A DNA stretch of 61,968 bases, filler included, from Candidatus Desantisbacteria bacterium CG1_02_49_89 (GCA_001871075.1; 6 parts of 6 records of this genome joined end to end with filler, not necessarily neighbours in it), one strand, 5' to 3'; counted from the first letter of the whole stretch, positions 1,629 through 61,887 are shown. Numbers and translations are program-made. The notes: generated by a model not told the origin, from the letters alone.

Positions 1629-1831
1629 CCTTCCTCCTCTCCCTTAAAATATGATTACAGTGATTATCAACTAATGATTACGGTGATTATATTCAGTGTC
1701 AAGAGTCAAGTGTCAAGAGTCAAGTAGAAAATTAATCTTGTGGAAATCGTGTGTAATCGTGTGGTTTATTCCGTGCCTCTGTGGTTTATATTTAACTTTT
1801 GCAATTTGAAATTTGAAATTTAACTTGTATT

Positions 1832-3112
1832 TTAGTATTTCAAAGCCTTAACGCCTATATCCCTGCGAAACTGCATCCCGTCGAAACTGATGTCCTTAAC
1901 GGTCTCATATGCCTTTGACCGCGCGTCTGTTATGTCCCTGCCAATCGCCGTGACACCCAGGACCCTGCCCCCGGCGGTCACTACTTTTCCGTCCTTAAGA
2001 GCAGTGCCTGCGTGGAAAATAACAACATCCTTCCTTTTCGCGGCTGCGTCAAGCCCTTTTATCTCTTTTTCCTTCTCGTACGCGTTCGGGTACCCGCCTG
2101 ACGCTGCAACAACGCAGACACAGGTTCCTTTTTTCCATTTAAGCTTTATTTTATTCAGCTGGTTATTCGCGCAGGCGAGAAGGACCTGTGCCAGATCTGT
2201 GTCTAATAATGGCAGTATCGCCTGCGTCTCAGGGTCCCCGAACCTGACGTTGAACTCAAGCACGTAAGGAACGCCCCCTGACACCATTATCCCCGCGTAA
2301 AGTATCCCGTTAAAACTTATTCCTTCTTTTTTGAACCCCCGCATCATCCTTCCGAAAACTTCCTCGCGTATTTTCCTGTCCAGGTCCAGCTCTTCTGTCA
2401 GGAGCGGAACCGGGGAATAAGCTCCCATGCCTCCTGTGTTTGGCCCCTTGTCATCGTCAAAAATACGTTTGTGGTCCTGGCTTGAGATGAGCGGTACGCA
2501 CGTGTCCCTGTCCACAAGCGCGAGCATCGAAATTTCTTCTCCGGGAAGGCACTCCTCTATTACGACCCTGGCCCCCGCGTCCCCGAATATCTTTTCATCC
2601 AGGATCCTGCGCACGGAATCTATGGCTTCGTCCTCGGTTTTGCACACGATAGCGCCTTTTCCGGCTGCAAGCCCGTCCGCCTTAACCACTATAGGCGCTC
2701 CCTTCTTCTTTATGTAGTCCGAAGCCGGCTTTGATTCCTTAAAAATTTCGAAGGGGGCTGTAGGAACCCCGTATTCCTCCATCATTATCTTGGCAAACAC
2801 CTTGCTTCCTTCAAGCCTGCTGGGTTCCTTGCCCGGCCCGAATATCGCAAGGCCTTCTTTCCTGAAAAAATCCGCCATCCCTTTTACAAGCGGCGCTTCG
2901 GGCCCGACAACAGTCAGGCCTATTTTTTCCTTTCTTACAAAATCCGCGATCGCCTTGAAATCGTCAAGCGGCAGGCCGAAGGGGCGATCCGCGATCCGCG
3001 ATATGCCCGCGTTGCCGGGGATGCAATAGACCTTTTCAACGCTTTTGCCCTGGGCTATCTTCCAGACAAGCGCGTGCTCCCTTCCCCCGCTTCCGATCAC
3101 TAATACTTTCAT
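1832..3112 (-). CDS. purD: Phosphoribosylamine--glycine ligase
   Basis: MKVLVIGSGGREHAL, KADGLAAGKG, GPNTGGMGAYSP, EFNVRFGDPETQ. Confidence 0.98.
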   Translation of the reverse strand: MKVLVIGSGGREHALVWKIAQGKSVEKVYCIPGNAGISRIADRPFGLPLDDFKAIADFVRKEKIGLTVVGPEAPLVKGMADFFRKEGLAIFGPGKEPSRLEGSKVFAKIMMEEYGVPTAPFEIFKESKPASDYIKKKGAPIVVKADGLAAGKGAIVCKTEDEAIDSVRRILDEKIFGDAGARVVIEECLPGEEISMLALVDRDTCVPLISSQDHKRIFDDDKGPNTGGMGAYSPVPLLTEELDLDRKIREEVFGRMMRGFKKEGISFNGILYAGIMVSGGVPYVLEFNVRFGDPETQAILPLLDTDLAQVLLACANNQLNKIKLKWKKGTCVCVVAASGGYPNAYEKEKEIKGLDAAAKRKDVVIFHAGTALKDGKVVTAGGRVLGVTAIGRDITDARSKAYETVKDISFDGMQFRRDIGVKALKY

Positions 3113-3127
3113 TCAAACTCCCAAGAT

Positions 3128-3255
3128 TTCCACGAAGACACGAAATCCCACGAAAAATTCTTTTATCTCAGATTTATAAAGAGAAAACCAACGAATTTAA
3201 GTGTAAAAATCTATCTTCTTTCGTGCCTTCGTGATACTTTCGTGCTTTCGTGGAA
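3128..3255. repeat. Non-coding element with inverted short-tandem-repeat arms (CACGAA-type left, TTCGTG-type right)
   Basis: ccacgaagacacgaaatcccacgaaa ... tttcgtgccttcgtgatactttcgtgctttcgtgg around an AT-rich core. Confidence 0.8.
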
Positions 3256-3256
3256 A

Positions 3257-3931
3257 TTATTTTTCTATTTTTGCCTTTTTGCCTTTGATTTTCAGCTTCC
3301 CGGACGCGAAAAGCTTCAGCGCCTGGGGATATGCGATGTGTTCGTATTTAAGCACGCGCTTCGCAAGCGTATCCGGTGTGTCGCCCTTGCGCACCCGCAC
3401 TTTCTTCTGCAGTATTATCGGGCCTGTGTCACAGCCTTCGTCAACGAAATGGACCGTGCACCCCGATTCTTTTACCCCGCTCTTCAGCACCGCCTCGTGC
3501 ACGTGATGGCCGTACATTCCTTCTCCGCCGAACCTGGGCAGGAGCGCGGGATGGATGTTCAGCACGCGGTTTTTGAAGTTCCTTACGAAGTACGGGTGGA
3601 GTATCAGCATAAATCCTGCCAGGCACACCGCGTCTATATTCCTTTTTTTGAGTTCTTTAACCAATGCTTTCGCATATTCAAGCCTGTTCTTGTATTTTTT
3701 ATCAGTGAGGATCAGTGTCTCAATCCCGGCTTTTCCCGCCCTTTCCAGCGCGTACGCCTCCGGGTTATTGCTTATTACTAAAGATATTTTATAATTTTGC
3801 AATTTGCCCCAAAGGGACTCGTTCGAGCATTTTGCAATTTGCAATTTGACTTTGGGTCTCTGGTTGTCTATCAGCGCCTGTAAATTCGACCCACCTCCCG
3901 AAACCAAGACTGCAACCCTGGTCACCTTCAT
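3257..3931 (-). CDS. purN: Phosphoribosylglycinamide formyltransferase with short N-terminal insertion
   Basis: SGGGSNLQALID, LNIHPALLP, GCTVHFVDEGCDTGPII. Confidence 0.97.
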   Translation of the reverse strand: MKVTRVAVLVSGGGSNLQALIDNQRPKVKLQIAKCSNESLWGKLQNYKISLVISNNPEAYALERAGKAGIETLILTDKKYKNRLEYAKALVKELKKRNIDAVCLAGFMLILHPYFVRNFKNRVLNIHPALLPRFGGEGMYGHHVHEAVLKSGVKESGCTVHFVDEGCDTGPIILQKKVRVRKGDTPDTLAKRVLKYEHIAYPQALKLFASGKLKIKGKKAKIEK

Positions 3932-3952
3932 TTCTTTCCTTTTATTTTTGTT

Positions 3953-4211
3953 TACACGTTACACGGTTAGTTATATGGTACTCTGCCTTTCCCCTTACAC
4001 GTGACACGTTACACGTTACACGGTTAGTTATATGGTACTCTGCCTTTCCCCTTACACGTGACACGTTACACGTTACACGTTACACGGTTATTATTATGGT
4101 ACTCTGCCTTTCCCCTTACACGTGACACGTGACACGTTACACGGTTAGTTATATGGTACTCTGCCTTTCCCCTTACACGTGACACGTTACACGTTACACG
4201 TTACACGGTTA
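3953..4211. repeat. Tandem repeat of alternating 57/64-bp units built on ACACGTT heptamers
   Basis: Core ggttagttatatggtactctgcctttccccttacacgtg starts at 3965, 4022, 4086, 4143, partial at 4207. Confidence 0.95.
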
Positions 4212-5210
4212 TTATGCCAGCTCTACCGCCTGCTTCCCCTTCACCACGTCCCCGATCAGGTACGCCCTGACTGACCTTCCCGCGGCTCTCAGGACTGCCT
4301 TCGCCTGGGATCTCGGCACTACCAAAACCATCCCTATGCCCATGTTGAACGTGCGGAACATTTCTTTGTCGGGAAGGCCGCTTCTTTTCTGCACTTCTTT
4401 AAAGATCCCGGGCACAGGCCAGGTCCCCTTCTTTATTCTTATACCTGTGCCTTTGGGCAGGATCCTGGGCGGGTTCTCAAACAGGCCCCCGCCTGTTATG
4501 TGCGCGATGCCTTTTATCTTATATTTGGATATAAGCCTCATTATTATATCAGTGTAAATCCGTGTCGGTTCAAGCAGTTCTTCTTTGAATTTCTTCCATT
4601 CGCTCTTTTTGAAAAGCCTGCGCGTAAGCGAGAACCCGTTTGAGTGCAGGCCGCTGGACGCAAGCCCTATTACTTTATCGCCCGGCTTAATGTTCCTTCC
4701 GTCGATCATCTTTTCCCTTTCAACCACGCCCACAGCGAACCCCGCCATATCGTATTCGCCCTTCTGGTAGAAATCAGGCATTTCCGCGGTTTCTCCCCCG
4801 ATAAGCGCGCACCGCGAGATCCTGCAGCCCTTTACGATCCCCCTCATCGCTTCTTTCGCGTCCTTCAGGCTCAACTTCCCTGTGGCGAAATAATCCAGGA
4901 AGAAAAGCGGCTTCGCGCCGCAGCATATCAGGTCATTCACTGACATCGCGACAAGGTCAATGCCCACGGTATCGTGTTTCTTCAGTTCAAATGCGATCTT
5001 CAGCTTTGTGCCCACCCCGTCAGTGCAGGAAACAAGCACCGGTTCCTTGTAACCCGCAGGAAGGGCGAACGCGGCGTTGAACCCCCCGATGCCGGCAAGC
5101 ACTCCCTTTGCGCCGAAGGTGGTCTTTGCCGCGCCTGTTATGTAATCAACAAGCCTGTCCCCCGCATCTATGTCCACCCCGCTATCCCTGTAGGTTATCC
5201 GCCTGGCCAT
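4212..5210 (-). CDS. purM: Phosphoribosylformylglycinamidine cyclo-ligase (AIR synthetase)
   Basis: TYRDSGVDIDAG, TDGVGTKL, GGETAEMP, SSGLHSNGFS, RTFNMGIG; ATG 5210 preferred over 5237 (RBS). Confidence 0.98.
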   Translation of the reverse strand: MARRITYRDSGVDIDAGDRLVDYITGAAKTTFGAKGVLAGIGGFNAAFALPAGYKEPVLVSCTDGVGTKLKIAFELKKHDTVGIDLVAMSVNDLICCGAKPLFFLDYFATGKLSLKDAKEAMRGIVKGCRISRCALIGGETAEMPDFYQKGEYDMAGFAVGVVEREKMIDGRNIKPGDKVIGLASSGLHSNGFSLTRRLFKKSEWKKFKEELLEPTRIYTDIIMRLISKYKIKGIAHITGGGLFENPPRILPKGTGIRIKKGTWPVPGIFKEVQKRSGLPDKEMFRTFNMGIGMVLVVPRSQAKAVLRAAGRSVRAYLIGDVVKGKQAVELA

Positions 5211-5348
5211 CCCTGTCTCCTTCTCCTCTCGTGACATCGTAACATCGTGACATCGTGAGTCGTTGAAAACAGATTAAGATTGAGATTAAGATTAAGGTTT
5301 TAAAACTGACAAAACCGACTAAACTATTATTTTAATTTTGACTTTTGC

Positions 5349-5410
5349 ATTTTGTTGAGCTGGTAGCGAAATCCCCCCTGCTTGCCCATTCAGGGCAAGG
5401 GGGGACATTT
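5349..5410. repeat. Dispersed palindromic repeat (second, expanded copy at about 36616-36726)
   Basis: ttttgttgagctggtagcga...atcccccctgYttgcccattcagggcaaggggggacatt shared by both sites. Confidence 0.85.
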
Positions 5411-5466
5411 TGACTTTTGCAATATTCTGTCTTTCCCTTACACGTAACACGTAACACGTTACACGG

Positions 5467-5877
5467 TTATACCCAGACCACTTCAACTTCCTTCTCCACG
5501 CTCTTGAAGTCCCTGTCCCCCGTGACGATCTTCGCGCCCTTGGCTTTCGCGACCGCCACCACAAGGGCATCCCCCAGGCTCAGGGGGAACTGCACCCTGA
5601 TCTCTCCCGCCGCCATCAGGAGCTGCTCGTCTAAGCCCACGGATTCAATGGGAAGGTTCCTCACCAGCACCATTGTTTTCAACGCCTTATCCCTTCCTTC
5701 CTCTTTTAATACAATATGATATATTTCAGCCAGGTCCATTGATGTAAGGAATATAACCGCGTCGCGCTTCTGCGCCTTCTTGAGCATTTCCTCAATGAGC
5801 GCGGAACCGTTTTCGTTGTTCAGGTAGGCAAGCATCGCGCAGGTATCCAGGACGTATTTATCTTTCGGCGAATCCAT
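5467..5877 (-). CDS. vapC: PIN-domain (VapC-family) toxin
   Basis: YVLDTCAMLAYL, LAEIYH, LSLGDALVVAVA, IVTGDRDF acidic PIN motifs; 136 aa. Confidence 0.9.
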   Translation of the reverse strand: MDSPKDKYVLDTCAMLAYLNNENGSALIEEMLKKAQKRDAVIFLTSMDLAEIYHIVLKEEGRDKALKTMVLVRNLPIESVGLDEQLLMAAGEIRVQFPLSLGDALVVAVAKAKGAKIVTGDRDFKSVEKEVEVVWV

Positions 5878-5905
5878 CCTGCTTAATTTTCCTCCGCGTA
5901 TAATT

Positions 5906-5989
5906 TGTCATTGCGAGGAGTGTACCGACGAAGCAATCTCTGTTTTAACAACTAGATTGCCACACTCACTTCGTTCGTTCGCAATGACA
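5906..5989. repeat. GTCATTGCG...CGCAATGAC palindromic element between antitoxin and toxin
   Basis: tgtcattgcgag...gcaatct...agattgc...cgcaatgaca; related cores at about 26165, 56501, 61735. Confidence 0.85.
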
Positions 5990-6012
5990 TTATCGGGTTT
6001 TTTACGTTTGTA

Positions 6013-6255
6013 TCAGTACTCTTCTTTATACTTCTTCAATTCCTGCTTCAGCTCTGACATCACTTCTTTGGACGAACGCCTGAACTTCAAGAATCCCCTT
6101 GCTGACTGTATCGGGTCTTTGGCAAGCGGGACCAGCACGATGGCGTTGTCAACCTCAAGGATTTCCAGACTGTCGTGCGGCCCTATGTTATATTTCTTTC
6201 TTAAATTAGCAGGTATTACGATCTGACCTTTTGAAGAGACGTTTGCTATTGACAT
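6013..6255 (-). CDS. AbrB/MazE/SpoVT-family antitoxin
   Basis: MSIANVSSKGQIVIPANLRKKYNI; directly upstream of PIN toxin; GGAGG RBS. Confidence 0.9.
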   Translation of the reverse strand: MSIANVSSKGQIVIPANLRKKYNIGPHDSLEILEVDNAIVLVPLAKDPIQSARGFLKFRRSSKEVMSELKQELKKYKEEY

Positions 6256-6290
6256 CCTACTTTCCTCCAAAAAGTACTACATAGCCTACT

Positions 6291-7879: not shown

Positions 7880-7980
7880 GNNNNNNNNNNNNNNNNNNNN
7901 NNNNNNNNNNNNNNNNNNNNNNNNTTAATTAATTAANNNNNNNNNNNNNNNNNNNNNNNNNNNNNNNNNNNNNNNNNNNN

Positions 7981-8647: not shown

Positions 8648-8675
8648 TTGACAAAAAGGCAAAACCGAGTATAAT
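8648..8675 (+). promoter_or_regulatory. Sigma70 promoter
   Basis: TTGACA-N16-TATAAT. Confidence 0.7.
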
Positions 8676-8712
8676 ATAATAGGCGATTTGTCTGTTTTTC
8701 AGGAGTAACAAT

Positions 8713-9039
8713 ATGGACAATATTTCGTTTGAAGAATTCAAAAAGATGGACCTCAGGTGCGCCAGGATACTGGAGGTGCAGGACCATCCCAATGCCGACA
8801 AGCTCTACGTGATCAAGATCGACCTGGGCGCCGAGACAAGGCAGCTTGTGGCAGGCATAAAGCCCTGGTATAACAAAGAAGAGCTTGTAGGCCGGGATAT
8901 CGTGGTGATAACAAACCTTGAGCCGCGCGTTATACGGGGGATGGAAAGCAAGGGCATGCTGCTTGCGGCGCAGGACGAAGCAGGCGTGTGCATTCTTGTT
9001 CCTGAAAAGCCGGCAAAGCCGGGCAGCGCAGTTTCTTAA
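8713..9039 (+). CDS. Stand-alone tRNA-binding OB-fold protein (MetG C-terminal/Trbp111/CsaA-like)
   Basis: ISFEEFKKMDLR, HPNADKL, RQLVAGI, NLEPRVIRGMESKGMLLAA. Confidence 0.9.
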   Translation: MDNISFEEFKKMDLRCARILEVQDHPNADKLYVIKIDLGAETRQLVAGIKPWYNKEELVGRDIVVITNLEPRVIRGMESKGMLLAAQDEAGVCILVPEKPAKPGSAVS

Positions 9040-9043
9040 TACA

Positions 9044-9243
9044 ATTATGAATTATGAATGATGGAATTCGAAAACATTCTGTAAAACCACACGAGAATGT
9101 TGCCCGAAGGGCAAAGTTATGAGTCAGGGCTGAAGCCCTGAGTTATCCGCCCCGATGTCCATCGGGGCGAGACCTCGCCCCGAAGGGGCGGGCAATATAT
9201 TCCTTGTAGTTGATTCATAACTCATAAATCATAACTCATAATT
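9044..9243. repeat. Composite dispersed element, copy 1 (TTATGAA/TTCATAA arms with nested hairpins)
   Basis: Shares gagaatgttgcccgaagggcaaagttatga.tcagggct.aagccctgagtta and both arms with 59181-59348. Confidence 0.9.
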
Positions 9244-9259
9244 ATCATTTGGAGGAGTA

Positions 9260-9787
9260 ATGATCTCGAGCGATGAGGCGGAACTGAACGCGATAAGGCA
9301 GGTTGCGAACCTTATGTGCGCCGCCGCAAGGACCGCTCCGAAGGGCAGGGGTATTGACAACCTTGTCACCGCCATCGTTGAAGGCGAGGAAAAGAATGCC
9401 ATCGCGCGGAAAATGCTTGAGCTTGCCAGGGAAAAGGATGTCCAGAGTTTTGCGAGGGACGCGGCCGGCGTCAGGTTCGCACCGGTCCTGGTGCTCATAG
9501 GAACAAGGGCAAAACCTATGGGCCTGAAGATCTGCGGGCTGTGCGGGTTCAAGGACTGCGCGGAGCTTGAGGGAAAAGGCGGCATCTGTGTGTTCAATGC
9601 TTCTGACCTGGGTGTTGCGATCGGATCAGCGGTCTCAGTGGCTGCGCTGCACCACGTAGACAACAGGGTAATGTATACTGCCGGGATCGCGGCAATGGAA
9701 ATGGAACTACTCGGTAAGGACGTGAAGATCCTATTTACCATCCCGCTTACCGCTACCGGCAAGAACCCTTTCTTTGATAGAAAATAA
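9260..9787 (+). CDS. DUF2148-like ferredoxin-domain protein
   Basis: MCAAARTAPKGRG, CGLCGFKDC, DLGVAIGSA, VDNRVMYTAG. Confidence 0.85.
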   Translation: MISSDEAELNAIRQVANLMCAAARTAPKGRGIDNLVTAIVEGEEKNAIARKMLELAREKDVQSFARDAAGVRFAPVLVLIGTRAKPMGLKICGLCGFKDCAELEGKGGICVFNASDLGVAIGSAVSVAALHHVDNRVMYTAGIAAMEMELLGKDVKILFTIPLTATGKNPFFDRK

Positions 9788-10020
9788 CTACAGGGACACA
9801 CAGAAATATTTTGCCACTGAAATCACTAAGCCCTCTGAGTTTTAACCTTGAAACCTTGAAACCACGGAACCTCGGAACAAATATATTGAGACGCAGATTT
9901 TCACAGGTTTTACCATTGAGATCACTAAATGCACTGAGTATTACATTAAATCCAAAATGCGCAGAGGCCGCATAAAAGGAGGGAAAGAACAGACCTCAGA
10001 ACAGAAAAAAGGAGAGGAAA

Positions 10021-10314
10021 GTGAAGAAACTATACGTTGGTAATTTTGGTTATGATACCACCGAAGAGCAGTTAAAGGAGCTGTTTGCAGCGGCAGGAAC
10101 TGTTGTGAGCGCGACCATCATCAAGGATAAGCACAGTGAAAGGTCGAAAGGTTTTGGGTTTGTTGAGATGTCAACTGACGAAGAAGCGGCTAAAGCGATC
10201 GCCGATCTTAACGGGAAAGATCTGGGAGGCCGTGCTATTTCTGTTGCTGAAGCGCGTCCTATGCGTGAGCGCAGTGGCGGCGGTGGCGGTGGCGGAGGCC
10301 GGGACAGATTTTAA
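10021..10314 (+). CDS. RRM-domain RNA-binding protein
   Basis: KLYVGN (RNP2), KGFGFVEM (RNP1), Gly-rich tail; GTG start. Confidence 0.95.
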   Translation: MKKLYVGNFGYDTTEEQLKELFAAAGTVVSATIIKDKHSERSKGFGFVEMSTDEEAAKAIADLNGKDLGGRAISVAEARPMRERSGGGGGGGGRDRF

Positions 10315-12195: not shown

Positions 12196-12211
12196 ACCCG
12201 CCTTAAGAATT

Positions 12212-12308
12212 ACCACGGAGGCACAGAGACACAGAGAAATATTTGGCTTTTTCAAATGACAAAAGACTACCTTTGCAGCCACGAATTTGCACGGATTTCC
12301 ACGAATTA
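12212..12308. repeat. Dispersed STR-type element, copy 1 (copy 2 at about 57975-58080)
   Basis: accac.gaggcac.gagacacagagaaatatt...caaatgac...gact.cctttg...ccacg shared. Confidence 0.8.
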
Positions 12309-12972: not shown

Positions 12973-13325
12973 CCACGGAAGCCCCTTGCTGCTCCGATAA
13001 ATACCGGAGCAATACGCAGGGACCTTCGGGTCAGAGCTGAGTCGATGACCCTACGGCACGGAAGGACGGAGGCACGGAGATACAGTCCGCCCGTCTTTCA
13101 GCGGGCGAGACCTCGCCCCGATAGACATCGGGGCGGGAGACTACCTTATAAATTTTTGGTTTCTCTTACAGAACCTATGTCGGTAAACTTGATACTTGAC
13201 ACTTGTTGCCCCTGCGGTCACCACTCCGGCGACCTGCCGTAGGGGCATGGCAACCCGCCGTTGAGGCGGGACTCTTGATACTGAAAATAATCACCGTAAT
13301 CTCTTTAAGAAATCACTGTAATCAA
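12973..13325. repeat. Stack of palindromic and STR elements between sigma and anti-sigma genes
   Basis: cgcagggaccttcgggtca...tgaccctacggca (also about 25820), gggcgagacctcgccccgat...atcggggcggg, cccgccgttgaggcggga, aatcaccgtaatc. Confidence 0.85.
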
Positions 13326-13336
13326 ACAGGAAAAAG

Positions 13337-14972: not shown

Positions 14973-16363
14973 GAAACACAGCGAGGATCCTATCGGCCGG
15001 CATCGCCTGCTTTTTATTCTTGGCCGCCCTGCAGCCCGCGCTTGGCAGTGAAAGGCTGACAAAGCTTATTTATATCGAGGGGATCGTTGAGGTGCAGAAA
15101 CCCGGCGCCAGGTTTGCGAAGGCTGAGCTGGACATGCAGCTGGGCAAAGGCGATGTGCTGCGGACCGGCAGCGGTTCGATAGCGGAGCTTGAGCTGGATG
15201 ACGGCAGCTTCGTGAAGATCGGAGAAGAAAGCACGATCGGCATACTTGCGCTTGAAGAAGTGGGGCCGGGGAAAGACAGGGTATCCCTGTTCAAGCTTAT
15301 ACTGGGGGAGATAAAGGCGACTATACAGAAAGCGCTGGGCAGGCAGGCGAGTTTTGAGGTTCAGACCGCGGCTTGCATAGCCGGAGTGCGCGGGACGGAT
15401 TTCACGGTGACCGCGGAGGGCGATGAGGCAGCTGACGTGGAAGTCCTTGAAGGCAGCGTAGCAGTGGAAGGGCTGGGGGAAAAAGGCGAGCGCGGCGCGC
15501 TGTCCGAAGTGAAGGCGGGGCAGAGCACGCGGGTTGAAAAGGGAAAGCCCCCGATGGCCGTACAGAAGATTGAAGCGTACCGCAGGGCAAGGTGGGAGCT
15601 TTTCGCGAAAAAGAAAAAAATATTCAACTCCGCGAAGGAGCTTGAAAAGGCAAAAATAGCTGCCGATTTCCTCAGGGTAAAATACGCGCAGGCTGAAGGC
15701 GAAAGCCGAAAGGCCCTGCTGAAACAGGCGGAAGGCCTGAAGAAAGCGGTGGTTAAAACCGCGCTTGAAATGGAAAAGGCAAACAAAGATTTCATCAAAG
15801 ACAAAGAAAAGCTTGACAGGGAGACCGCGAAGGCCGTTGCTGACTGGAAAAGACTGCCGCCCGAGAAACGGGCCAAGGCAAGGATGAATTACGAGATATG
15901 GAAGAGCACCGCCCCGCAGCCCGCCTTTGCGCGCAGGGACAGGATGAAGGAGATCCTTGAAAACTGGAAGGACACGCCTCCACAGGTGAAAGCCGTGATC
16001 ATCCGCGCGCACAAGGCGTGGAACAGCCTTAAGCCCGAACTGAAAAAGGCAATAATCCTGAAAGTGAGGCAGTTCAGCCAGCTTCCGCCCTGGGTCAAGA
16101 AAAAGATCGTTGACAACTGCCGCAGGTGGAAAGGCCTTCAGCCCGAGGTAAAAAAGAGGATGGTGGAGAACTACGGGAAATGGAAAAAACTTCCCCCTGA
16201 AAAGAGGGAGGATATAAAGGACAGGATCGAGGATTTCAAGAACCTTCCTCCGGAAAAGAAGCTCCGGATATTAAAATTGCACAAGATGTGGCAGAAGGTT
16301 CCGCCCAAGATGCGCATGGAATGGATGAAGAAGCATGCTGGCAAACCCCCAAAAAGAAGTTGA
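14969..16363 (+). CDS. Exported FecR-domain protein with coiled coil and DUF3106-like WxxLPPE repeats
   Basis: GDVLRTGSGSIAELELDDGS, FEVQTAACIAGVRGTDF, VEVLEGSV; repeats WKRLPPEKR, WKDTPPQ, WNSLKPE, FSQLPP, WKGLQPE, WKKLPPE, FKNLPPE, WQKVPP. Confidence 0.8.
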   Translation: MRNTARILSAGIACFLFLAALQPALGSERLTKLIYIEGIVEVQKPGARFAKAELDMQLGKGDVLRTGSGSIAELELDDGSFVKIGEESTIGILALEEVGPGKDRVSLFKLILGEIKATIQKALGRQASFEVQTAACIAGVRGTDFTVTAEGDEAADVEVLEGSVAVEGLGEKGERGALSEVKAGQSTRVEKGKPPMAVQKIEAYRRARWELFAKKKKIFNSAKELEKAKIAADFLRVKYAQAEGESRKALLKQAEGLKKAVVKTALEMEKANKDFIKDKEKLDRETAKAVADWKRLPPEKRAKARMNYEIWKSTAPQPAFARRDRMKEILENWKDTPPQVKAVIIRAHKAWNSLKPELKKAIILKVRQFSQLPPWVKKKIVDNCRRWKGLQPEVKKRMVENYGKWKKLPPEKREDIKDRIEDFKNLPPEKKLRILKLHKMWQKVPPKMRMEWMKKHAGKPPKRS

Positions 16364-16571
16364 AAGTTAAAGGTTGAAGGTTGAAAGTTGAAAGATTTCC
16401 ACGAAATCACGAAAGTACCACGAAGACACGAAAAATTCCTTGGACCTCGGAACCTTTAATCCTCGGGACCAGTTTTAAACTGGATACTGGACACTGGTTA
16501 CTGGATACTATTTCGGCGATGCACGACCCGCAAGGGCGATGCACGAGGAACGAGAAAGAGGAGGTGGGAGA

Positions 16572-17111: not shown

Positions 17112-17140
17112 TTGACATTCCATTCAATCTGTGATATAAT
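17112..17140 (+). promoter_or_regulatory. Consensus sigma70 promoter
   Basis: TTGACA-N17-TATAAT with TG extension. Confidence 0.8.
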
Positions 17141-17813: not shown

Positions 17814-17889
17814 CGCAGTTAAAAGTTGAAAGTTGAACGTTGAAAGTTAAAAAATCCGTGCAAATCAGTGGCAATCTGTGTCTAATTTT

Positions 17890-18714: not shown

Positions 18715-18839
18715 AATTAGTTTATAGAGTTTACAAAGTCTATAAGTTTATATAGTTTAAAATCCGTGGAAATCCGTGGCTTATTTACTTGACCCCTGCT
18801 GGGGTCTTCGTCTCTGAGTTTGAATGTGGGGTTTTTTCC

Positions 18840-18867
18840 TTGACAAATCTAAAAATATTTATATAAT
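18840..18867 (+). promoter_or_regulatory. Sigma70 promoter for the protease gene
   Basis: TTGACA-N16-TATAAT. Confidence 0.7.
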
Positions 18868-18942: not shown

Positions 18943-20379
18943 ATGCTTAGGCATAGGAAATTTCTGCCAATTCTTTTCTTGATTTTTTGTTTTTCCATTA
19001 CACGTTACACGTTACACGTTACACGAATCTGCTCCGCAGCCGACGCCAACGTGCTCAGCGACCTGCAGGACTCGTTCGCGCGCATAGCTGAATCCGCAAA
19101 ACCTGCCGTAGTGAACATTTCCTCAACCAGGATCGAAAGAACGCAGCTGTATTCCTACAGGAGCCCTTTCGGGGAAGAAGACCCTTTTGACGAATTTTTC
19201 AGGCATTTCTTCGGTCCGGAATACGGAACAAGGAAGCAGCAGAGCATCGGCTCCGGGGTCATAATTGACAAAAGAGGTTATGTGCTCACCAACTACCACG
19301 TTGTTGAAAGGGCAAGCGACATACAGGTCGCGCTGGGGGACGGAAGGAACAAGAAGTCGTATCCCGGCAAGATAGTCGGAAAGGATTCCCGCACAGACCT
19401 CGCTGTTATCAAGATAGAGCCAAAAAAGAACGAAGATTTCCCCACGGTGCCGCTGGGAGATTCGGACAAAATAAGGATCGGTGACTGGGCGGTCGCGCTG
19501 GGAAGCCCTTTCGGCCTGGAGCACACGCTTACGGTCGGGGTCATAAGCGCGAAACGCCAGAATGTTACGATCCAGAACAACACGTATGAGGACCTGATAC
19601 AGACCGACGCTTCCATAAATCCGGGAAACAGCGGCGGACCGCTCCTCAACCTTAAGGGCAAGGTCATCGGGATAAACACCGCGATCGTTTCCCCGAGCGG
19701 CGGCTTTGTGGGTGTCGGGTTCGCGATACCGATAAACAAGGCAAAGGAAATACTGGAAGACCTTATAGAAAAAGGAAAAGTGACCAGGGGCTACCTGGGG
19801 GTCAAAACCCAGGATATTACGGACGAACTTGTAAGATCCTTCGGGCTTCCGGGCATTGAAGGAGCGCTTGTAAGCGAGGTGATCCAGGGAGAAGCCGCGG
19901 AAAAAGCGGGCGTGAAGCGCGGGGATGTCATTGTGCAGGCCGGAGACAAACCGATCCAGAATTCAAACGACCTGAGATCCGCCATAGGAAGGACGCAGCC
20001 CGGGAAGAAAATAACTCTTAAAATAATCCGCAGCAAGAAAGAGATCGCGGTAGAAGCAGCGCTGGGAAAAGCGCCGGAAGAGGAAGGCGAGGCTGCTGCC
20101 AGGGAAGAGGCAAAGGAAGAGCGTATCGGCATAACCGTGAAGAACTCAAAAGTCCAATTGGATCCCTTGGGGAAAAGCGTGGTAGTGTCAAAGGTCGAGC
20201 CTGGCAGTTCCGCCCAGGACGCGGGCATCGCTGAAGGCGACATCATAAAGGAAGTCAATAATAAAGAAATAAAAGATGTTTCGGATTTTGAAAGCGGGAT
20301 GAAGGACGCAAAAGACACGGTACTCCTGCTCATCAAGCGCGGGACTTCGATGCTGTACGTGGCGGTCGAATTGAAATAA
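18943..20379 (+). CDS. Do/DegP/DegQ-family periplasmic serine protease with two PDZ domains
   Basis: LTNYHVV, TDLAVIK, IQTDASINPGNSGGPL catalytic triad; two PDZ domains. Confidence 0.95.
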   Translation: MLRHRKFLPILFLIFCFSITRYTLHVTRICSAADANVLSDLQDSFARIAESAKPAVVNISSTRIERTQLYSYRSPFGEEDPFDEFFRHFFGPEYGTRKQQSIGSGVIIDKRGYVLTNYHVVERASDIQVALGDGRNKKSYPGKIVGKDSRTDLAVIKIEPKKNEDFPTVPLGDSDKIRIGDWAVALGSPFGLEHTLTVGVISAKRQNVTIQNNTYEDLIQTDASINPGNSGGPLLNLKGKVIGINTAIVSPSGGFVGVGFAIPINKAKEILEDLIEKGKVTRGYLGVKTQDITDELVRSFGLPGIEGALVSEVIQGEAAEKAGVKRGDVIVQAGDKPIQNSNDLRSAIGRTQPGKKITLKIIRSKKEIAVEAALGKAPEEEGEAAAREEAKEERIGITVKNSKVQLDPLGKSVVVSKVEPGSSAQDAGIAEGDIIKEVNNKEIKDVSDFESGMKDAKDTVLLLIKRGTSMLYVAVELK

Positions 20380-20489
20380 CCGTCGTAAGTCGTACGTCGA
20401 TCGTTGAATTAGAAAATTTTTTTACGTACGACCCGCTAGGGAGACGTATGACGTACGACTGATAAATAAAATCATAAAAGGATGTGGAC

Positions 20490-21656: not shown

Positions 21657-21769
21657 TAATCTGATTACACAGATTTTAAAAGCGATTACACAGATTTTGT
21701 ATACATAGTTCTATAAATAAATTTCTTTTTATTTTTAATCGGTGTAATCATTTGTGAGTGGAGGAACAA

Positions 21770-24218: not shown

Positions 24219-24220
24219 AG

Positions 24221-24340: not shown

Positions 24341-24352
24341 AGAGGAGAAGAA

Positions 24353-37862: not shown

Positions 37863-37926
37863 GCTTTTAGTTAAAAGTTGAAATCAGATTTTACTTTTAG
37901 CTTTGAGCTTTCAGCTTTTAGCTAAA

Positions 37927-43421: not shown

Positions 43422-43703
43422 TCAGAATTGCTTCAATATGCGTTCAAGATACTTTCTCAAAATAACACGCAAAATAATCAATGAATCCTTATTAAGTTGT
43501 CTATAAATTGTTCTATAAACACCGCTTCTGAGACGCCAAAAAGCACCGTTTTTACCGCGGATTTTTTTGCCTTTTGGTGGCCTTGGGAAAGGTTCTTTTT
43601 GAAGATTTTTGATGTCAAAGATGATATTCCCATAATCTTTAGGTTTTTCTATCTTAATTTCATCCAGTTCGTCCTGCGCTGTTTTAGTCAAAAATATCTT
43701 CAT
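43422..43703 (-). CDS. RelE/ParE-family toxin
   Basis: IFLTKTAQDEL...PRPPKGKKI...WRLRSGVYRTIY. Confidence 0.85.
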   Translation of the reverse strand: MKIFLTKTAQDELDEIKIEKPKDYGNIIFDIKNLQKEPFPRPPKGKKIRGKNGAFWRLRSGVYRTIYRQLNKDSLIILRVILRKYLERILKQF

Positions 43704-43955
43704 TTAAACCCTTTCACCTTTTAGATAATTTTCAACTGAGATAATTTTGCCGGCTGATATATCTTTTTCTGCTTCTTTTAAGAGCTTATTAATGTGTGGG
43801 CTATTTGCAATAATAAAATCTTCCACACCCATGTCGCTGGAAAACGGTATAATGCCAAAGCAAGGTTTGCCTCTTCTGGTTATTATCATTGGCTTTTTTT
43901 GCAACGCAATTTTGGGAAAATTCAGTCTTATATCCCTGACCGTTACGGTTTCCAT
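43704..43955 (-). CDS. Phd/YefM-family antitoxin
   Basis: TVTVRDIRLNF...PMIITRRGKP; abuts the toxin gene. Confidence 0.82.
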   Translation of the reverse strand: METVTVRDIRLNFPKIALQKKPMIITRRGKPCFGIIPFSSDMGVEDFIIANSPHINKLLKEAEKDISAGKIISVENYLKGERV

Positions 43956-44580: not shown

Positions 44581-44860
44581 GAATGAAGGGGATTTTGGGT
44601 TAAATGATATGAAAGATGCGTAGATGAAAAGTTATAAGTTGATGTGAAGGAGATGGGTGGCGTATGGTTTAGTAAGTTGTCTTATTGGGCTACAATAAAA
44701 AACCCGTTCTGTTTTTTAGAACGGGTCTATAAATACCGCCTGAATGAANNNNNNNNNNNNNNNNNNNNNNNNNNNNNNNNNNNNNNNNNNNNTTAATTAA
44801 TTAANNNNNNNNNNNNNNNNNNNNNNNNNNNNNNNNNNNNNNNNNNNNGTGGTTTTTTCC

Positions 44861-45395: not shown

Positions 45396-45656
45396 GAAGA
45401 AGATTACGGTGATTATAAAAGCGATTACGGTGATTATTTAAATGACGAATTACGGCGATTTTTAAAGAGATTACCCCCTGCTGTCCCGATTTCATATCGG
45501 GACAAAACGCGGGGATCCTTTAGGGACAGTGATTATTTAAACGACGAATTTCAGTGATTAATAAAGAAAACAGGTAAAAATTGTTTAGGCAGAAATCACT
45601 GTAATCATCAGTTAATAATCACCGTAATCAAAAACATTAAAATATTAAGGATTTAC

Positions 45657-51098: not shown

Positions 51099-51198
51099 NN
51101 NNNNNNNNNNNNNNNNNNNNNNNNNNNNNNNNNNNNNNNNNNTTAATTAATTAANNNNNNNNNNNNNNNNNNNNNNNNNNNNNNNNNNNNNNNNNNNN

Positions 51199-52194: not shown

Positions 52195-52357
52195 ATACAA
52201 TCGTTAACCACGAATTAACCCCTGCGGGTTTCTGCGAAACCATAACGCTGGGGCCTACGAACCAGAGCTGGGTCGATGGCTCTCCGGCACGGATTAACAC
52301 GGATTTTAGACTATATAAACTGTGTAAACTTTGTAAACTGTGTAAACTAATACTACT

Positions 52358-55430: not shown

Positions 55431-55877
55431 GTGTTCTCCGGCGAATATTCTCATGCTATTGATAAGAAAGGCAGGCTGATAATACCCTCCAGGTTCAGGG
55501 AGATCCTGACTGAAAGGTATGAGGAAAAGTTCATAATGACCAAGGGACTTGATACCTGCCTTTTGCTTTATCCGGCTGACGAGTGGAATGAACTTGAGAA
55601 AAAAATGAAGGAAGTTTCCACTGTCACCAACCCAAGCGCGCGCGCTTTTAAAAGGTTTATGATCGCGGGCGCGATAGAATGCACTGTTGATAAGCAGGGC
55701 AGGATAATGATCCCTTCAAACCTGCGCGTGTACGCCCAGATAACAAGGGATGTTGTGATAACCGGAAATCTGGAAAAGGTGGAGATCTGGGCAAAAGAGA
55801 GATGGCAGGAATACTGGAAAGCCTCCAAGCCGATCGAGGAGCTTGCCAGGGAGATAGGGGAGGATGTAAAACTATAA
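55431..55877 (+). CDS. mraZ: Division/cell-wall cluster repressor MraZ
   Basis: MFSGEYSHAIDKKGRLIIPSRFR, DKQGRIMIP, VEIW. Confidence 0.97.
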   Translation: MFSGEYSHAIDKKGRLIIPSRFREILTERYEEKFIMTKGLDTCLLLYPADEWNELEKKMKEVSTVTNPSARAFKRFMIAGAIECTVDKQGRIMIPSNLRVYAQITRDVVITGNLEKVEIWAKERWQEYWKASKPIEELAREIGEDVKL

Positions 55878-56094
55878 ACGTGTCAACGTATCAACGTGTC
55901 AGAGTGTCAGAGTAGGTTCTAACTAAAAAGTCCCGCCTCATCGGCGGGTCGCCATGCCTCGCCGGCAGGTCGCCGAAGTGGTGACCGAAGTGGCGACAAA
56001 GCTCAAAGGTCAAAGGTTAAAGCTTAGAATAAAATTCCTTCATTGTAAATTGTAAATTGCAAATTTTAAATTGTAAAAAACGGAATACATACTA

Positions 56095-56383
56095 ACTCAA
56101 ATACATATCCGCCGCGAATTACTCTTCAAGGGTCCGCATTCACCTTTTCACGCTTGGGCGGATTCATCGATACCTTTACCGCGGACCCGTCCCGCTCTTT
56201 TCAGATACAGTGTCAACGTGTCAGCGTATCAACGTGTCAAAGTAACCGGCTAAACAGGCCAAACCGGCATAACTGATACTATACTCCGCCTTAGTTACGA
56301 CTTTCTGGGCCCGCTTGCCCCCTTAAGCAAAGACTGGCGGACTACACTTGCCCTTCTGCGGGCCCTTGCTCTACATAACTACA
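56095..56383. repeat. Two diverged copies (about 177-bp period) of a structured motif
   Basis: TCCGCC...GGGYCCGC-N43-GCGGRCCC with GGCGGA inside the loop, followed by GCTCT...TACAG, in both copies. Confidence 0.65.
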
Positions 56384-56456
56384 GATCATAGATGCTGCCG
56401 CCCATGGCTTTTGCCTGGGCGAGCCTCGCCCTGAGGTTTCAGGGCGGGGATCCTAG

Positions 56457-56684
56457 TGTGGTGTCACATAAATCCCTTGACATTTGATTCTGCTTTGAGT
56501 TGTCATTGCGAGCGACCAAAGGGAGCGTGGCAATCTCGATTTTTAGGTCGAGATTGCTTCGTCGTTAACACTCCTCGCAATGACAGCCCAAATGTAAAGA
56601 TCTGTTAGAGACACCACACTAGTGTGGTGTTACATAAATCCCTTGACATTTGATTCTGCTTTGAGTTGTCATTGCGAGCGACCA
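56457..56684. mobile_element. CTAG-flanked MITE-like element, copy 2 (56457-56618) and tandem copy 3 (from 56623, cut by gap)
   Basis: Same sequence as 26121-26278; the tandem copies share one CTAG. Confidence 0.88.
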
Positions 56685-56785
56685 NNNNNNNNNNNNNNNN
56701 NNNNNNNNNNNNNNNNNNNNNNNNNNNNTTAATTAATTAANNNNNNNNNNNNNNNNNNNNNNNNNNNNNNNNNNNNNNNNNNNNC

Positions 56786-57943
56786 AGGCGGGACGACGCG
56801 TCTTCAGACCTGGGCCCGTTCCACTACCAGATCAAGGAAATAAAGATGTCTTTCGCCCTGAGGGATCACCAGTCGATGCAGGCGGCGCTCTACAACAGGA
56901 TGCTTGGGAAACTTCAGGGCTACACCCCTTTTCAGATGTCCTTAGTCCTCAGGAAAAAAGAAGAGGTCGTGCATTACGAGGATTACTCGAAGCGCCTGGA
57001 TGAGCTGATCTCGTACTGGAGGGATATTAGGGACGGAAAGTCAAAGCCCGAACCTTACGGGCCGGACAAGGTGAACCCGCCGTGGCGCGTTTACGCGAAC
57101 AGGACCCTTGACGAAAACATGGACCTGACCCTGCTTCCCGATGTCGGCGGGGCAACAAGAGAAAAAATAAGGTCGGAACTGGGCGCGAACCGCATAGACG
57201 GCCTGTACAAGTTCTCCCTTGACGAGCTGAAGCAGAAATTCGAGGAGAAGCTGGGCACCTCGCTGTATTACCACGCGCAGGCATACAGGGCGGGAAAACC
57301 GATAACGCCTCCGGGAACAGAAGTCGGATTCCCACGCAAGGCCCGCCACCTCTACCTTGACTTTGAAACGTCCGGCGAGATCTTCAGTAATGACGCTGAC
57401 GCGGATGCTGACCTTGACCCCCAGGATAAAAAACACTGCTACCTGATAGGCCTGTGGGACGCAGAACAGGATAATTTCGTTTATTTCCTCGCGAAGGGCG
57501 CGGAAAAAGAAACGGATATTTTCCGCTCTTTCATTGATTACGTGGGGGACCCAAAAGACGTCTGTATTTTTCACTGGAGTGACTATGAGGTAAGGGTCAT
57601 GGATGAGGTCGCGCAGCGCTGCCCGGACCTTTCAAAGGGATTAGGCGCGATCAGGCAGTCCTGCATAGACCTGAAAGAAGTGATAAAACACCAGATCTAC
57701 ATGCCGGTTCCAAACTACTCGATCAAGCAGGTCGCCCCTTTCCTTGGGTTCAAGTGGAGGCAGGAGGAAGTGGACGCGCTTGAATCAATGGTGCTTTACT
57801 GGGACTACTTAAACGGCGATGAAGGGGCTATCCGGAAAACCATTGACTACAACGAGGACGACTGCCGCGCGATGTACTACACAGACTCAAGCCTGTGCCG
57901 GATGTTCGGCCTGCCGTTCCCCGGCAGATCAGCTGAAAGCTGA
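56786..57943 (+). CDS. TM0106-like RecB-family nuclease with RNase H-like domain (start lost in gap)
   Basis: Frame open from contig edge (RRDDASSDLGPFHYQIKEIK); LYLDFET, FHWSDYE, YSIKQVAPFLGFKWR, DYNEDDCRA. Confidence 0.85.
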   Translation, partial: RRDDASSDLGPFHYQIKEIKMSFALRDHQSMQAALYNRMLGKLQGYTPFQMSLVLRKKEEVVHYEDYSKRLDELISYWRDIRDGKSKPEPYGPDKVNPPWRVYANRTLDENMDLTLLPDVGGATREKIRSELGANRIDGLYKFSLDELKQKFEEKLGTSLYYHAQAYRAGKPITPPGTEVGFPRKARHLYLDFETSGEIFSNDADADADLDPQDKKHCYLIGLWDAEQDNFVYFLAKGAEKETDIFRSFIDYVGDPKDVCIFHWSDYEVRVMDEVAQRCPDLSKGLGAIRQSCIDLKEVIKHQIYMPVPNYSIKQVAPFLGFKWRQEEVDALESMVLYWDYLNGDEGAIRKTIDYNEDDCRAMYYTDSSLCRMFGLPFPGRSAES

Positions 57944-58156
57944 AAGCTCAAAGCTGAAAGTAAAAGAAAGGATCACCACTGAGGCACGGAGACACAGAGA
58001 AATATTCGACTTTTGCAAATGACTATTGACAAAACGACTGCCTTTGTAACCACGGATTAACACAGATTTACACGGATTTTAAACTATGTAAACTCTGTAA
58101 ACTATATAAACTTTGCAAACTACTGTGGACCGTCGACTGTGGACAGTGGACTGTTT

Positions 58157-59164: not shown

Positions 59165-59180
59165 TGCTCCTTTGAAAATA

Positions 59181-59348
59181 AATTATGAGTTATGGAATTC
59201 GAAAGCATTCAGTAAAACTATCGAGAATGTTGCCCGAAGGGCAAAGTTATGAATCAGGGCTAAAGCCCTGAGTTACCCCGAAGGGGTCCCTTTGGGACAA
59301 TTAAATCCTTGTTTTTGATTCATAACTAATAACTCATAATTCATAATT
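59181..59348. repeat. Composite dispersed element, copy 2
   Basis: Matches 9044-9243. Confidence 0.9.
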
Positions 59349-59352
59349 CTAT

Positions 59353-60495: not shown

Positions 60496-60693
60496 ATTTT
60501 CTCCTAAATTTTCCTGCGCATAAAAAATCCCCCTTTATCCCCCTCCCGATACATTCGTATACGGGATCCCGTATATATGAAACCGGGATTTTTAAAGGGG
60601 GATCGAGAGGGATTTGTGTTTTGCGATGCACGATGCATCCGCCCATTTAAAAATGGGCGAGACCTCGCCCCGATGGCCATCGGGGCGGGCGAG

Positions 60694-61638
60694 TTAGAAC
60701 TTCGCCCCGACTGTTATCCTGATGGGATTGCCCAGCTCGCCTGCCGGCGTATACGAAAAGTCCGCGCAATAATCCTGCCATTTGAAACCGCCGCCGAAAC
60801 AAAACCCCGCGAGCGGATTGATGTCCATCATCGAATCCGTCTTATACCCGGCCCTTACAGCGAACATTTTCTGTATCCATATCTCCATACCGGCGTGAAG
60901 CGCCATTTTGTTGTCAAACGGAACGATCAGGTCAGCTATTACGGAGCCTTCAAGGTTCTCCTGCGCGAGGACCTTGTAGCTTACGCCTGCCTTAAGCGCG
61001 GCCGGAAGCGGCGCCTCGGAAACGAATTTAAGCGGGGTGCCGAGGTTTTGCAGGGCTACTCCCGCGGTAAGGTTGGGCAGTTTCTCGGGATAATATATCG
61101 CGCCTATGTCAAATCCCACCGCGAGCGAACTTCCCTGGGCGTCTGCCGGGTCAAGTGTCTCGTATATGATCTTTACGGTCGCGCCGAGGCTGAGGTTCTT
61201 GAGCTGCCTCGCGTATGCCACGCCGACTGCCAGGTCGCCTGGTGAAAATGCCGCTCCGGAAACTCCGCCATCGGTCATGTAGGTCATGGACCCGTACCCA
61301 AGATATATCACGCTCGCCCCAAGCACGCTTTCCTGGGTCAGCCTTTGCCCGTAGGCGATAAAGCTCTGCGAGGTATCCAGCAGCCACATGTTATAGGTGA
61401 AGCTGGCCTCTATATTTGTGATAGAGTTCAGGCCGGCCGGGTTCCAGTAAATAGAGGTCACGTCGTCCGCCACAGCAGTGAACGCCTCTCCCATTCCCAC
61501 AGCCCTTGCTCCGGCTCCCACCTTAAGGAACGCGGCGCCTGTAGTACCGGGCCCGCCGCAGGATCCGTGTAACGTGTAAAGTGTAAGGTGTAAGGCAACC
61601 AAAGACAAAATTAAAAACCAGATAGTTTTTCTATGCAT
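60694..61638 (-). CDS. PorV/PorQ-family outer-membrane protein
   Basis: AFLKVGAGARAVGMGEAFTAVADDVTSIYWNPAGL; ends RITVGAKF. Confidence 0.88.
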   Translation of the reverse strand: MHRKTIWFLILSLVALHLTLYTLHGSCGGPGTTGAAFLKVGAGARAVGMGEAFTAVADDVTSIYWNPAGLNSITNIEASFTYNMWLLDTSQSFIAYGQRLTQESVLGASVIYLGYGSMTYMTDGGVSGAAFSPGDLAVGVAYARQLKNLSLGATVKIIYETLDPADAQGSSLAVGFDIGAIYYPEKLPNLTAGVALQNLGTPLKFVSEAPLPAALKAGVSYKVLAQENLEGSVIADLIVPFDNKMALHAGMEIWIQKMFAVRAGYKTDSMMDINPLAGFCFGGGFKWQDYCADFSYTPAGELGNPIRITVGAKF

Positions 61639-61701
61639 GTTTTCCTCCCGTTATCAATTATTTCTATTGGGTATATAAATGCAGCTTACAAGCTGACAAG
61701 C

Positions 61702-61845
61702 TTACTAATACAAACGCATAAAATAACCTGATAGTGTCATTGCGAACGAACGAAGTGAGTGTGGCAATCTCGTCGTTAAAACCGAGATTGCTTCGTCGTT
61801 TCACTCCTCGCAACAACAAATTACTTAATGCGTTTGTATTAGTAA
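61702..61845. mobile_element. MITE-like element with 18-bp perfect inverted ends
   Basis: TTACTAATACAAACGCAT...ATGCGTTTGTATTAGTAA enclosing the GTCATTGCG/GAGATTGC core. Confidence 0.7.
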
Positions 61846-61887
61846 ATACGTGACTTGTGAGCTTGTTAACTATTTCCTGCCCGCGCG

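Follow-up and report, generated by a model that had tools for sequence, protein, structure and literature searches.

No other periodic DNA is as common between the genes of prokaryotes as tandem repeats with a seven-nucleotide unit. The excess of these heptamer repeats has been attributed to slippage (Mrazek 2007, as summarised in PMC4679880; PMC6344855), and a 2018 survey of 7006 genomes reported 'no clear clue' to their function (PMC6344855). Here we describe such repeats in a stretch of 61,968 bases (the window; 48.8% G+C) from the draft genome of Candidatus Desantisbacteria bacterium CG1_02_49_89 (GCA_001871075.1), where tandem arrays crowd the gene junctions and some of them, paired with an inverted copy, close a hairpin. 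The cyanobacterial short tandemly repeated repetitive (STRR) sequences, reportedly described by Mazel in 1990, form a related tandem-repeat class.

Intervening sequences (IVS) in Leptospira are said to have been described by Ralph and McClelland in 1993, and the small dispersed repeats of Nostoc by Elhai in 2008. Miniature inverted-repeat transposable elements (MITEs) and the Nostoc repeats are very small hairpin-forming mobile repeats. The IVS in the 23S rRNA of Coxiella burnetii is bounded by a stem, carries an S23p open reading frame (ORF) and is cut by RNase III; it contains two or three GACAGAT heptamers depending on the strain, and is regarded as selfish and horizontally acquired (PMC4990558). 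PF05635 ORFs are also found in rRNA insertions of the candidate phyla radiation (CPR), and ORF-less and ORF-bearing forms coexist (PMC11270868). The TAACTGA repeats of Beggiatoaceae, Cyanobacteria and Bacteroidetes comprise 169 direct sets and one indirect set upstream of start codons, and a translational role next to the start codon has been proposed for them (PMC4679880). REPINs, hairpin-forming doublets of repetitive extragenic palindromic (REP) sequences, have a conserved 16-20-mer per family and are associated with the RAYT transposase (PMC3116915).

Tandem Repeats Finder (TRF) gave 88 rows on the window, which we merged into 64 arrays of period 6-10. Of these, 45 were mostly non-coding, within 10,902 non-coding bases. 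Thirty dinucleotide shuffles contained on average 8.1 arrays in total and 1.7 in non-coding DNA (maxima 13 and 6). Arrays were present in 23 of the 37 gaps of at least 60 bp. Period 7 was the commonest (18 of 48 non-coding arrays), with period 14 adding five more. Sixteen of the 45 arrays lay within 15 bp of a gene boundary, 14 at stops and two at starts, and when viewed in the sense of the gene many began 0-5 nt past the stop codon. The first-pass annotation of this stretch had described pervasive junction repeats whose arms often start at a stop codon. These counts bear it out, and every example that it had named with coordinates is present. A 'three-frame stop wall' was considered for the stop-abutting arrays and rejected: of 14 arrays, 4 had stops in all three frames in sense and 3 had them in antisense, with no sense bias.

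The stop and last codons of the FecR-like gene (16357-16363) and of the RecB-like gene (57931-57943) are encoded by tandem arrays, as is the lysine-rich C-terminal tail of PurN (3268-3286). Tandem repeats have thus reshaped the 3' ends of genes. Arrays whose period is not a multiple of three were confined to non-coding DNA, with the exception of those in signal peptides. Two in-frame arrays of the TTACACG type occur there, so the repeats also reach cleaved leader sequences:

18998-19025, plus strand, TTACACG x4, in frame in the signal-peptide coding region of HtrA (by translation)
61567-61595, minus strand, TTACAC-type array, in frame in the signal-peptide coding region of a PorV-family gene; matches 18976-19029 in inverted orientation

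Both occupy the c-region, in HtrA as …FCFS-ITRYTLHVTR-ICSAAD… and in the PorV-family protein as …SLVA-LHLTLYTLHG-SCGG….

Next, we folded the elements in which an array faces its reverse complement and computed the z-score of the RNA minimum free energy (MFE) against 100 shuffles for each. In all nine the arms formed the closing stem, with z between -3.3 and -8.0. They are as follows (strand not assigned):

3120-3256, CACGAA / TTCGTG element in the purD-purN gap; arms form the closing stem, z -4.4
9040-9245, TTATGAA / TTCATAA copy 1, from a stop codon to the next ribosome-binding site (RBS); core of small GC hairpins including module B, z -7.4
20380-20462, GTCGTA / TACGAC element between htrA and a CsgG-like gene; z -3.5, not called by TRF
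21657-21752, GATTACAC / GTGTAATC element, the weakest example (two units on the left, one on the right); z -3.3
24219-24342, GATTACRGT / ACYGTAATC element from stop codon to RBS; z -7.8, inverted score in its own gap 22
37596-37790, TCTATT arrays and their inverted partner AATAGA, with a 58-bp block present twice, infC to tRNA-Met; z -6.8
45398-45632, GATTACRGT / ACYGTAATC element with a module-A-like hairpin core; z -8.0, arms match 24215-24265
59178-59350, TTATGAA / TTCATAA copy 2, at a junction unrelated to that of copy 1; z -7.0
61680-61870, GCTTACAA-arm element, a nested palindrome with a 16-bp perfect inverted repeat around module C; z -6.3

In a rank test against 36 other gaps, the inverted match in an array's own gap came first or second for 7 of 44 arrays. 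The annotation's statement that arrays often have an inverted arm thus stands for its examples, which fold with the arms closing, but 'often' was too strong. A terminator-like call was found near one of the nine regions, and a T run followed none of the nine hairpins. The segment 8000-26300 contained 36 terminator-like sites, versus 24.8 in shuffles. Intrinsic terminators in this segment were dismissed as an identity for the inverted-arm elements, since none coincided with them except a small CCGTGG hairpin at 18764.

Arm-plus-core composites recur in the window. The two TTATGAA copies are near-identical in the aligned blocks of the arms and left core, with the internal module swapped and the flanks unrelated; mean column identity was 79% over the whole alignment, flanks counted. 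The flanks of both copies showed no clear target-site duplication. In total we found 44 dispersed repeat pairs, most of them gap to gap. Module A (~85 nt) has three copies, each between CACGGA-type units, and modules B, C, D and E are also multi-copy. The AGTTTATA plus AAATCCGTGG composite occurs three times, in either orientation. Because both units and arm-plus-core composites recur at several loci, we are dealing with several families and not with one. There is also a MITE with terminal inverted repeats CTAGTGTGGTGTC. It has more than two copies, being tandemly doubled at 56440-56684 and placed in a CATCYAG heptamer run at 26105-26285, with possible CTAG on both sides of the 26105 copy. This placement, and that of module D between direct ATTTTGACTTTTGCA copies, means that the gaps are mosaics of arrays and hairpin modules. 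The arrays, composites and mosaics are listed here (strand not assigned):

1652-1821, single arrays (GATTACRGT, GTCAAGA, AATCGTGTGG, TTTGAAA) in the smc-purD gap; 1652-1707 matches 13324-13270 and 24341-24305 in inverted orientation
3952-4215, higher-order repeat of 57-64 bp x ~4, each copy a TTACACG/TGACACG heptamer run plus a 29-nt spacer; begins at the purM stop
5229-5465, five-array mosaic (TCGTGACA, AGATTA, AAAACCGAC, ATTTTGA, ACACGTA) plus module D between the copies of a 15-nt direct repeat; second module D copy at 36687-36726
5901-6018, module C copy with flanking inverted repeat, 89% identity over 121 bp to 61703-61823, inverted; other module C copies at 26165-26244 and 56501-56580
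12205-12307, CACGGA/CACAGA plus CCACGAATTT composite; second copy at 57968-58078, 77% identity over 111 bp
12973-13336, mosaic gap: module A with CACGGA flanks, module B, ACTTGAT array around module E, AATCACYGTAATC units
16357-16509, AAGTTGA array over the FecR-like stop, then CACGAA units and an ACTGGAT array
17817-17852, AGTTGAA array 4 nt past the LiaF-like stop; inverted copy at 25917-25944
18716-18779, AGTTTATA plus AAATCCGTGG composite array at the hyp278 stop; reverse-complement copies at 52288-52351 and 58061-58122 (87.5% and 82% identity)
25772-26336, gap with module A, AACTTTC array, MITE and a GCGATAA array reaching the end of the contig
26105-26285 and 56440-56684, MITE of ~170 bp with 13-bp terminal inverted repeats; 98% identity between copies
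36601-36730, CATTTTN array plus module D in the rplT-rpmI gap
37889-37923, AGCTRAA array 4 nt past the rpoD stop; inverted copy over the RecB-like stop, 57917-57965
52195-52351, module A copy with CACGRATT-unit flanks, then a TAAACTGTG array ending 10 nt before the cca start
55877-56684, long gap after mraZ: two ACGTGTCA arrays, CAAAGGT and ATTGTAA arrays, modules E and B, 1.4 tandem MITE copies at the contig end
57931-58151, convergent gap: AGCTGAA array over the RecB-like stop, CACGGA/CACAGA composite, TAAACTNTG array, GTGGACA array

To look beyond the window we scanned genome contigs with three copies of TKACACG, the commonest unit of the window. Runs of at least three units were found in at least 118 stretches across many phyla. 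Myxococcales, Anaerolineales, Omnitrophota, Verrucomicrobiota, Bacteroidota, Nitrospirae, Patescibacteria, Acidobacteriota and others were among the matches listed, as were a complete Sorangium chromosome and Streptomyces. From this sample we took 117 loci (L001-L117), 79 of them long (1.16 Mb, other phyla) and 38 (L080-L117) consisting of 300-bp flanks only. No match to the window was found among the 117 loci. Array density in the 79 long loci was mostly 4-19 per 10 kb, compared with 10.3 in the window. Period 7 accounted for 450 of 885 arrays in the outside loci, and 448 period-7 arrays comprised 215 canonical heptamers. A strict partner search, requiring at least two exact inverted units of the seeded unit, succeeded in 5 of 117 loci and proved too strict; because many inverted partners are degenerate, it was replaced by a local-alignment screen. 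In the long loci this screen found an inverted partner within 300 bp for 122 of 800 arrays and a direct partner for 63. Of 222 inverted hits, 93 lay less than 50 bp from the array, at ~170-200 per 100 bp versus a background of ~3.

In these genomes the same architecture encloses genes. A census of 230 stand-alone ORFs of 95-150 aa, together with a local HMM search of 3897 ORFs, gave exactly four PF05635/TIGR02436 genes (two in L012, one each in L037 and L041) and exactly one PF13366/TIGR04256 gene (L077). All five have inverted tandem arrays on both sides. Inverted flanks scoring at least 15 were found for four of the five, compared with 6 of 88 other array-flanked ORFs (Fisher p 3e-4). The arm duplexes of all five elements had z between -3.8 and -9.3, and in whole-element folds (L041, L037, L077) 26-40 pairs spanned the ORF. 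All five genes are co-directional with their neighbours and one is inside an atp operon. The link between such arms and TIGR02436 or TIGR04256 genes, which the annotation had put forward, was thus recovered in all five cases. No paper found in the literature searched, which did not cover subscription journals, describes such tandem-repeat arms at PF05635 or GxxExxY genes other than those in rRNA. The closest case found is the heptamer run in the Coxiella 23S IVS (PMC4990558). The L012 locus (8700-10040) holds two diverged four-helix-bundle genes in tandem, with 74% aa identity, which are separated and flanked by GTCACGTTC-type arrays of up to ~220 bp, the longest arrays seen. At wider spacing (0.4-3 kb) cargo was sought and set aside, as most pairs enclose ordinary genes (GspH-like, MobB, holA, ATP synthase a, LpxH).

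The elements also come and go. We compared the syntenic Verrucomicrobiae loci L064, L053 and L069, which are 75-86% identical. At junction J2, L064 is empty (a spacer of ~12 nt), L053 has an AACATTC/GTTGAAT hairpin and L069 a CTCCAAG/CTTGGAG hairpin. The AACATTC hairpin, found in three species, is also present at other junctions in L069 and L011, its arms better conserved than its core. At another junction CGTGACA arms are common to L064 and L069 and L053 has GCGTTGAA arms; the pair L011/L026 shows further element differences. The presence/absence comparison of orthologous junctions that had been proposed for the window therefore gave empty, filled and replaced states, in another phylum. The CGTGACA hairpin lies at pilin-like genes (L064 9960-10120, L069 9920-10065, L053 3150-3300). 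One arm appears to fall within the sequence coding for the prepilin leader peptide and the other within the 5' untranslated region (UTR), so the stem would enclose the start codon.

The repeat elements in the window are single arrays, arrays flanking GC hairpin modules, and hairpins made of an array and its reverse complement. What we observed is array enrichment, stem-forming arms and the dispersal of composites, together with cargo and turnover in other genomes. These results suggest, with a probability that we put at roughly 55%, that the hairpins of the window are ORF-less members of a dispersing class of 23S-IVS-like hairpins whose stems grow by slippage. The window would then represent, with the same likelihood, an ORF-less, high-density state of junction elements that combine an IVS-like architecture with MITE- or REPIN-like behaviour, plus plain slippage.

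This differs from what the annotation had proposed. Within the window it is supported by one arm-plus-core composite, the TTATGAA element, which lies at two unrelated junctions. For the majority of window arrays, which are single, no mobile element has to be invoked. Descent of the window copies from cargo-bearing ones is not supported, and ORF-less hairpins may be the basic form. The idea of one family or system gives way to many unit families, several unrelated hairpin modules and a classical MITE. 'Targeting' of operon junctions is no better an explanation of the abutment than a very short native spacer, such as the ~12 nt of the L064 junction. As stated there, no transposase was found among the ~75 window ORFs scanned; the cargo that it had suggested checking for, TIGR02436, TIGR04256, GIY-YIG and DUF559, had no match among them either.

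Several observations weigh against the reading of the window hairpins as members of a dispersing class. About 35 of the 44 window arrays have no inverted partner, and the stricter local-alignment score used on the outside loci was passed by 3 of 61 window arrays. Neither a cargo gene nor a transposase nor a clear target-site duplication was found in the window. The evidence for turnover and cargo comes from other phyla, in a sample biased by seeding with one heptamer. In that sample inverted pairs were no commoner than direct ones at 0.4-3 kb spacing, and most array-flanked genes are ordinary, with unrelated arrays on either side. A hairpin-element model does not predict the two arrays that lie in frame in the signal peptides of HtrA and PorV; for these and for the single arrays, slippage suits better than insertion.

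Slippage could be taken as the whole story. Local microsatellites of 6-10 nt would then form wherever they are tolerated (junctions, 3' ends, cleaved signal peptides), nothing would move, and inverted arms would come from the expansion of an existing hairpin stem or from template switching. Such a reading agrees with the majority of single arrays, with the very high diversity of units (215 canonical heptamers in 448 period-7 arrays), with the overlapped stop and C-terminal codons and with the in-frame signal-peptide arrays. It also agrees with the documented heptamer excess, ascribed to slippage in the cited parts of PMC4679880 and PMC6344855, and with the strain-variable heptamer count reported for the Coxiella IVS (PMC4990558). 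It is nevertheless at odds with arm-plus-core composites at unrelated junctions, with an AACATTC hairpin whose conserved arms are found at different junctions in three species, with an orthologous junction that is empty in one species and holds unlike hairpins in two others, and with two gene families tightly tied to inverted arms. We therefore think it rather unlikely, including its account of the inverted arms, that local slippage explains everything.

Selection for a cis-regulatory function, with arrays kept as multivalent protein-binding sites or as intercistronic structures for mRNA stability, processing or translation, seems to us less probable still. The placement from stop codon to RBS within co-directional strings would fit it, and so would the stable predicted stems, the hairpin apparently formed around the start codon of the Verrucomicrobiae pilin-like genes and the translational role proposed for TAACTGA near start codons (PMC4679880, in part). 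The window even contains a gene for an RRM-type RNA-binding regulator (10021-10314). But the units vary between junctions, and between sister species at one junction, which is hard to square with one sequence-specific binder. The flanked genes have no functional theme, and the near absence of terminator features (one call near nine regions, no T run after any of the nine hairpins) speaks against it as well. Finally, an assembler could have made or misplaced repeats in this fragmented draft; the window consists of six short linker-joined contigs, two of them stopping inside repeats (the array at 26336 and the MITE at 56684). Real dispersed repeats themselves cause contig breaks, however, and the arrays, at 20-90 bp, are below read length and lie between intact genes. 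A like architecture is present in 79 independent assemblies, among them contigs of 0.5-2 Mb and one complete chromosome. We regard an artefact of assembly or binning as very improbable.

If the hairpins belong to a dispersing IVS-like class, the following can be proposed. They lie within co-directional gene strings and would therefore presumably be transcribed with the operon, their arms pairing to form a long stem. A like architecture in other genomes has an S23p/four-helix-bundle gene or a GxxExxY PD-(D/E)XK gene in its loop. Slipped-strand mispairing would let the arrays grow, shrink and homogenise, and since a stem of tandem units still pairs after slipping, each family would drift to its own unit. 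By analogy, the transcribed stems might be substrates of a double-strand-specific RNase (RNase III-type) or stabilise mRNA ends between cistrons. The elements would abut stop codons and RBSs because the native spacers are only a few nucleotides long.

A wider proposal is more tentative. IVS-like hairpins with family-specific heptamer stems might colonise, leave and replace one another at junctions across phyla, as vehicles or landing pads for S23p and GxxExxY genes, and, together with arm slippage, give rise to much of the prokaryotic heptamer excess; the window would be their dense, ORF-less state. Should many heptamer repeats be stems or remnants of dispersing hairpins, these repeats would gain an origin. 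Two large uncharacterised families (S23p and GxxExxY) would gain a genomic context outside rRNA, and the operon junctions of many uncultured phyla would hold fast-evolving structured RNA that could affect mRNA processing. In practice, short-read assemblies are broken by the repeat elements, which also lengthen or reshape the ends of genes by way of C-terminal tails and signal peptides.

The window itself is made up of six draft-genome contigs with N44-TTAATTAATTAA-N44 between them, which the annotation had missed:

7881-7980, 26337-26436, 44749-44848, 51099-51198 and 56685-56784, contig linkers (n=5)

Two contig ends lie within repeats, an array at 26336 and the MITE at 56684. Gene pieces at the joins are alaS, a 1777-aa Ig-like protein, ArsP, PorV fragments and a truncated hypE. 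The genes are a usual chromosomal set: smc, purD/N/M, htrA, alaS, recX, recA, pheST, rplT, rpmI, infC, rpoD, dnaG, tmk, mraZ and PorV-family genes. At gathering threshold, Rfam returned tRNA-Met alone for the window, and no rRNA was found. Relatives of PheS comprise matches of 100% and 89% identity, with all others at or below 66%, and the closest named relatives of the CsgG-like protein are from Desantisbacteria, Raymondbacteria and Fibrobacterota, with partial coverage. Judging by such comparisons the lineage is poorly sampled. Perfect 12/12 sigma-70 consensus promoters (TTGACA-N16/17-TATAAT) are present at 8648-8675, 17112-17140 and 18840-18867, in gaps that hold arrays; the arrays in these gaps belong to the 3' UTR of the upstream gene and are not operon-internal.

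Three type II toxin-antitoxin pairs are wedged among the housekeeping genes (strand not given):

5467-6270, PIN/AbrB pair
30547-30959, HicAB pair
43422-43955, ParE/Phd pair

By eye, no inverted arms were seen around the three pairs. We considered them as cargo of the window and rejected them; the PIN pair has a weak AAAACCGAC / GTCGGTT resemblance. The module C copy at 5901-6018 separates the PIN toxin gene (5467-5877) from the gene of its AbrB/MazE-type antitoxin (6013-6270) by 135 bp.

Compared with known systems, the window arrays share with MITEs and the Nostoc repeats the ability to form hairpins. One MITE is embedded in a run of heptamers, and arrays flank modules A and D. Dispersed ORF-less copies with conserved inverted ends, as in MITEs, were found for the TTATGAA, CTAGTGTGGTGTC and AACATTC elements. 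The tandem-repeat arms are unlike classical terminal inverted repeats, however, and the ~75 window ORFs include no transposase family. The TAACTGA repeats are likewise heptamer arrays at gene boundaries in distant phyla, with no evident mechanism of transfer, but the window has many units, mostly at stop codons and some inverted; a TAACTGA array is absent from it, and its one match with two mismatches is no more than chance.

REP, REPIN and bacterial interspersed mosaic element (BIME) families resemble the window elements as short extragenic inverted doublets that form hairpins, are dispersed, build junction mosaics and are non-autonomous. REPINs are the nearest non-coding analogue, although the window arms are built of tandem heptamers whose sequences are many and unrelated, and the ~75 ORFs scanned include no RAYT. 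With the 23S IVS the shared features are an inverted-repeat stem and, in the other genomes, an ORF of the same PF05635 family in the loop with heptamers beside it. The window elements differ in lying between protein-coding genes, in having arms made largely of tandem units and in a loop without an ORF.

Finally, the long simple sequence repeats are alike in their tandem units of 5-11 nt with period 7 dominant, in their intergenic position and sporadic phylogenetic spread, in the presumed generation by slippage and in a function stated as unknown in the cited parts of PMC4679880 and PMC6344855. The window arrays belong among them by their above-chance tandem units and predominant period 7. As far as those sources describe them, long simple sequence repeats are isolated direct repeats, whereas in the window some inverted arms close a stem and composites are dispersed, and elsewhere, unlike in the published descriptions, the architecture encloses specific genes. 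Intergenic heptamer arrays were thus already known; what is added here are the stem-closing inverted arms, the dispersed composites and the gene-enclosing architecture.

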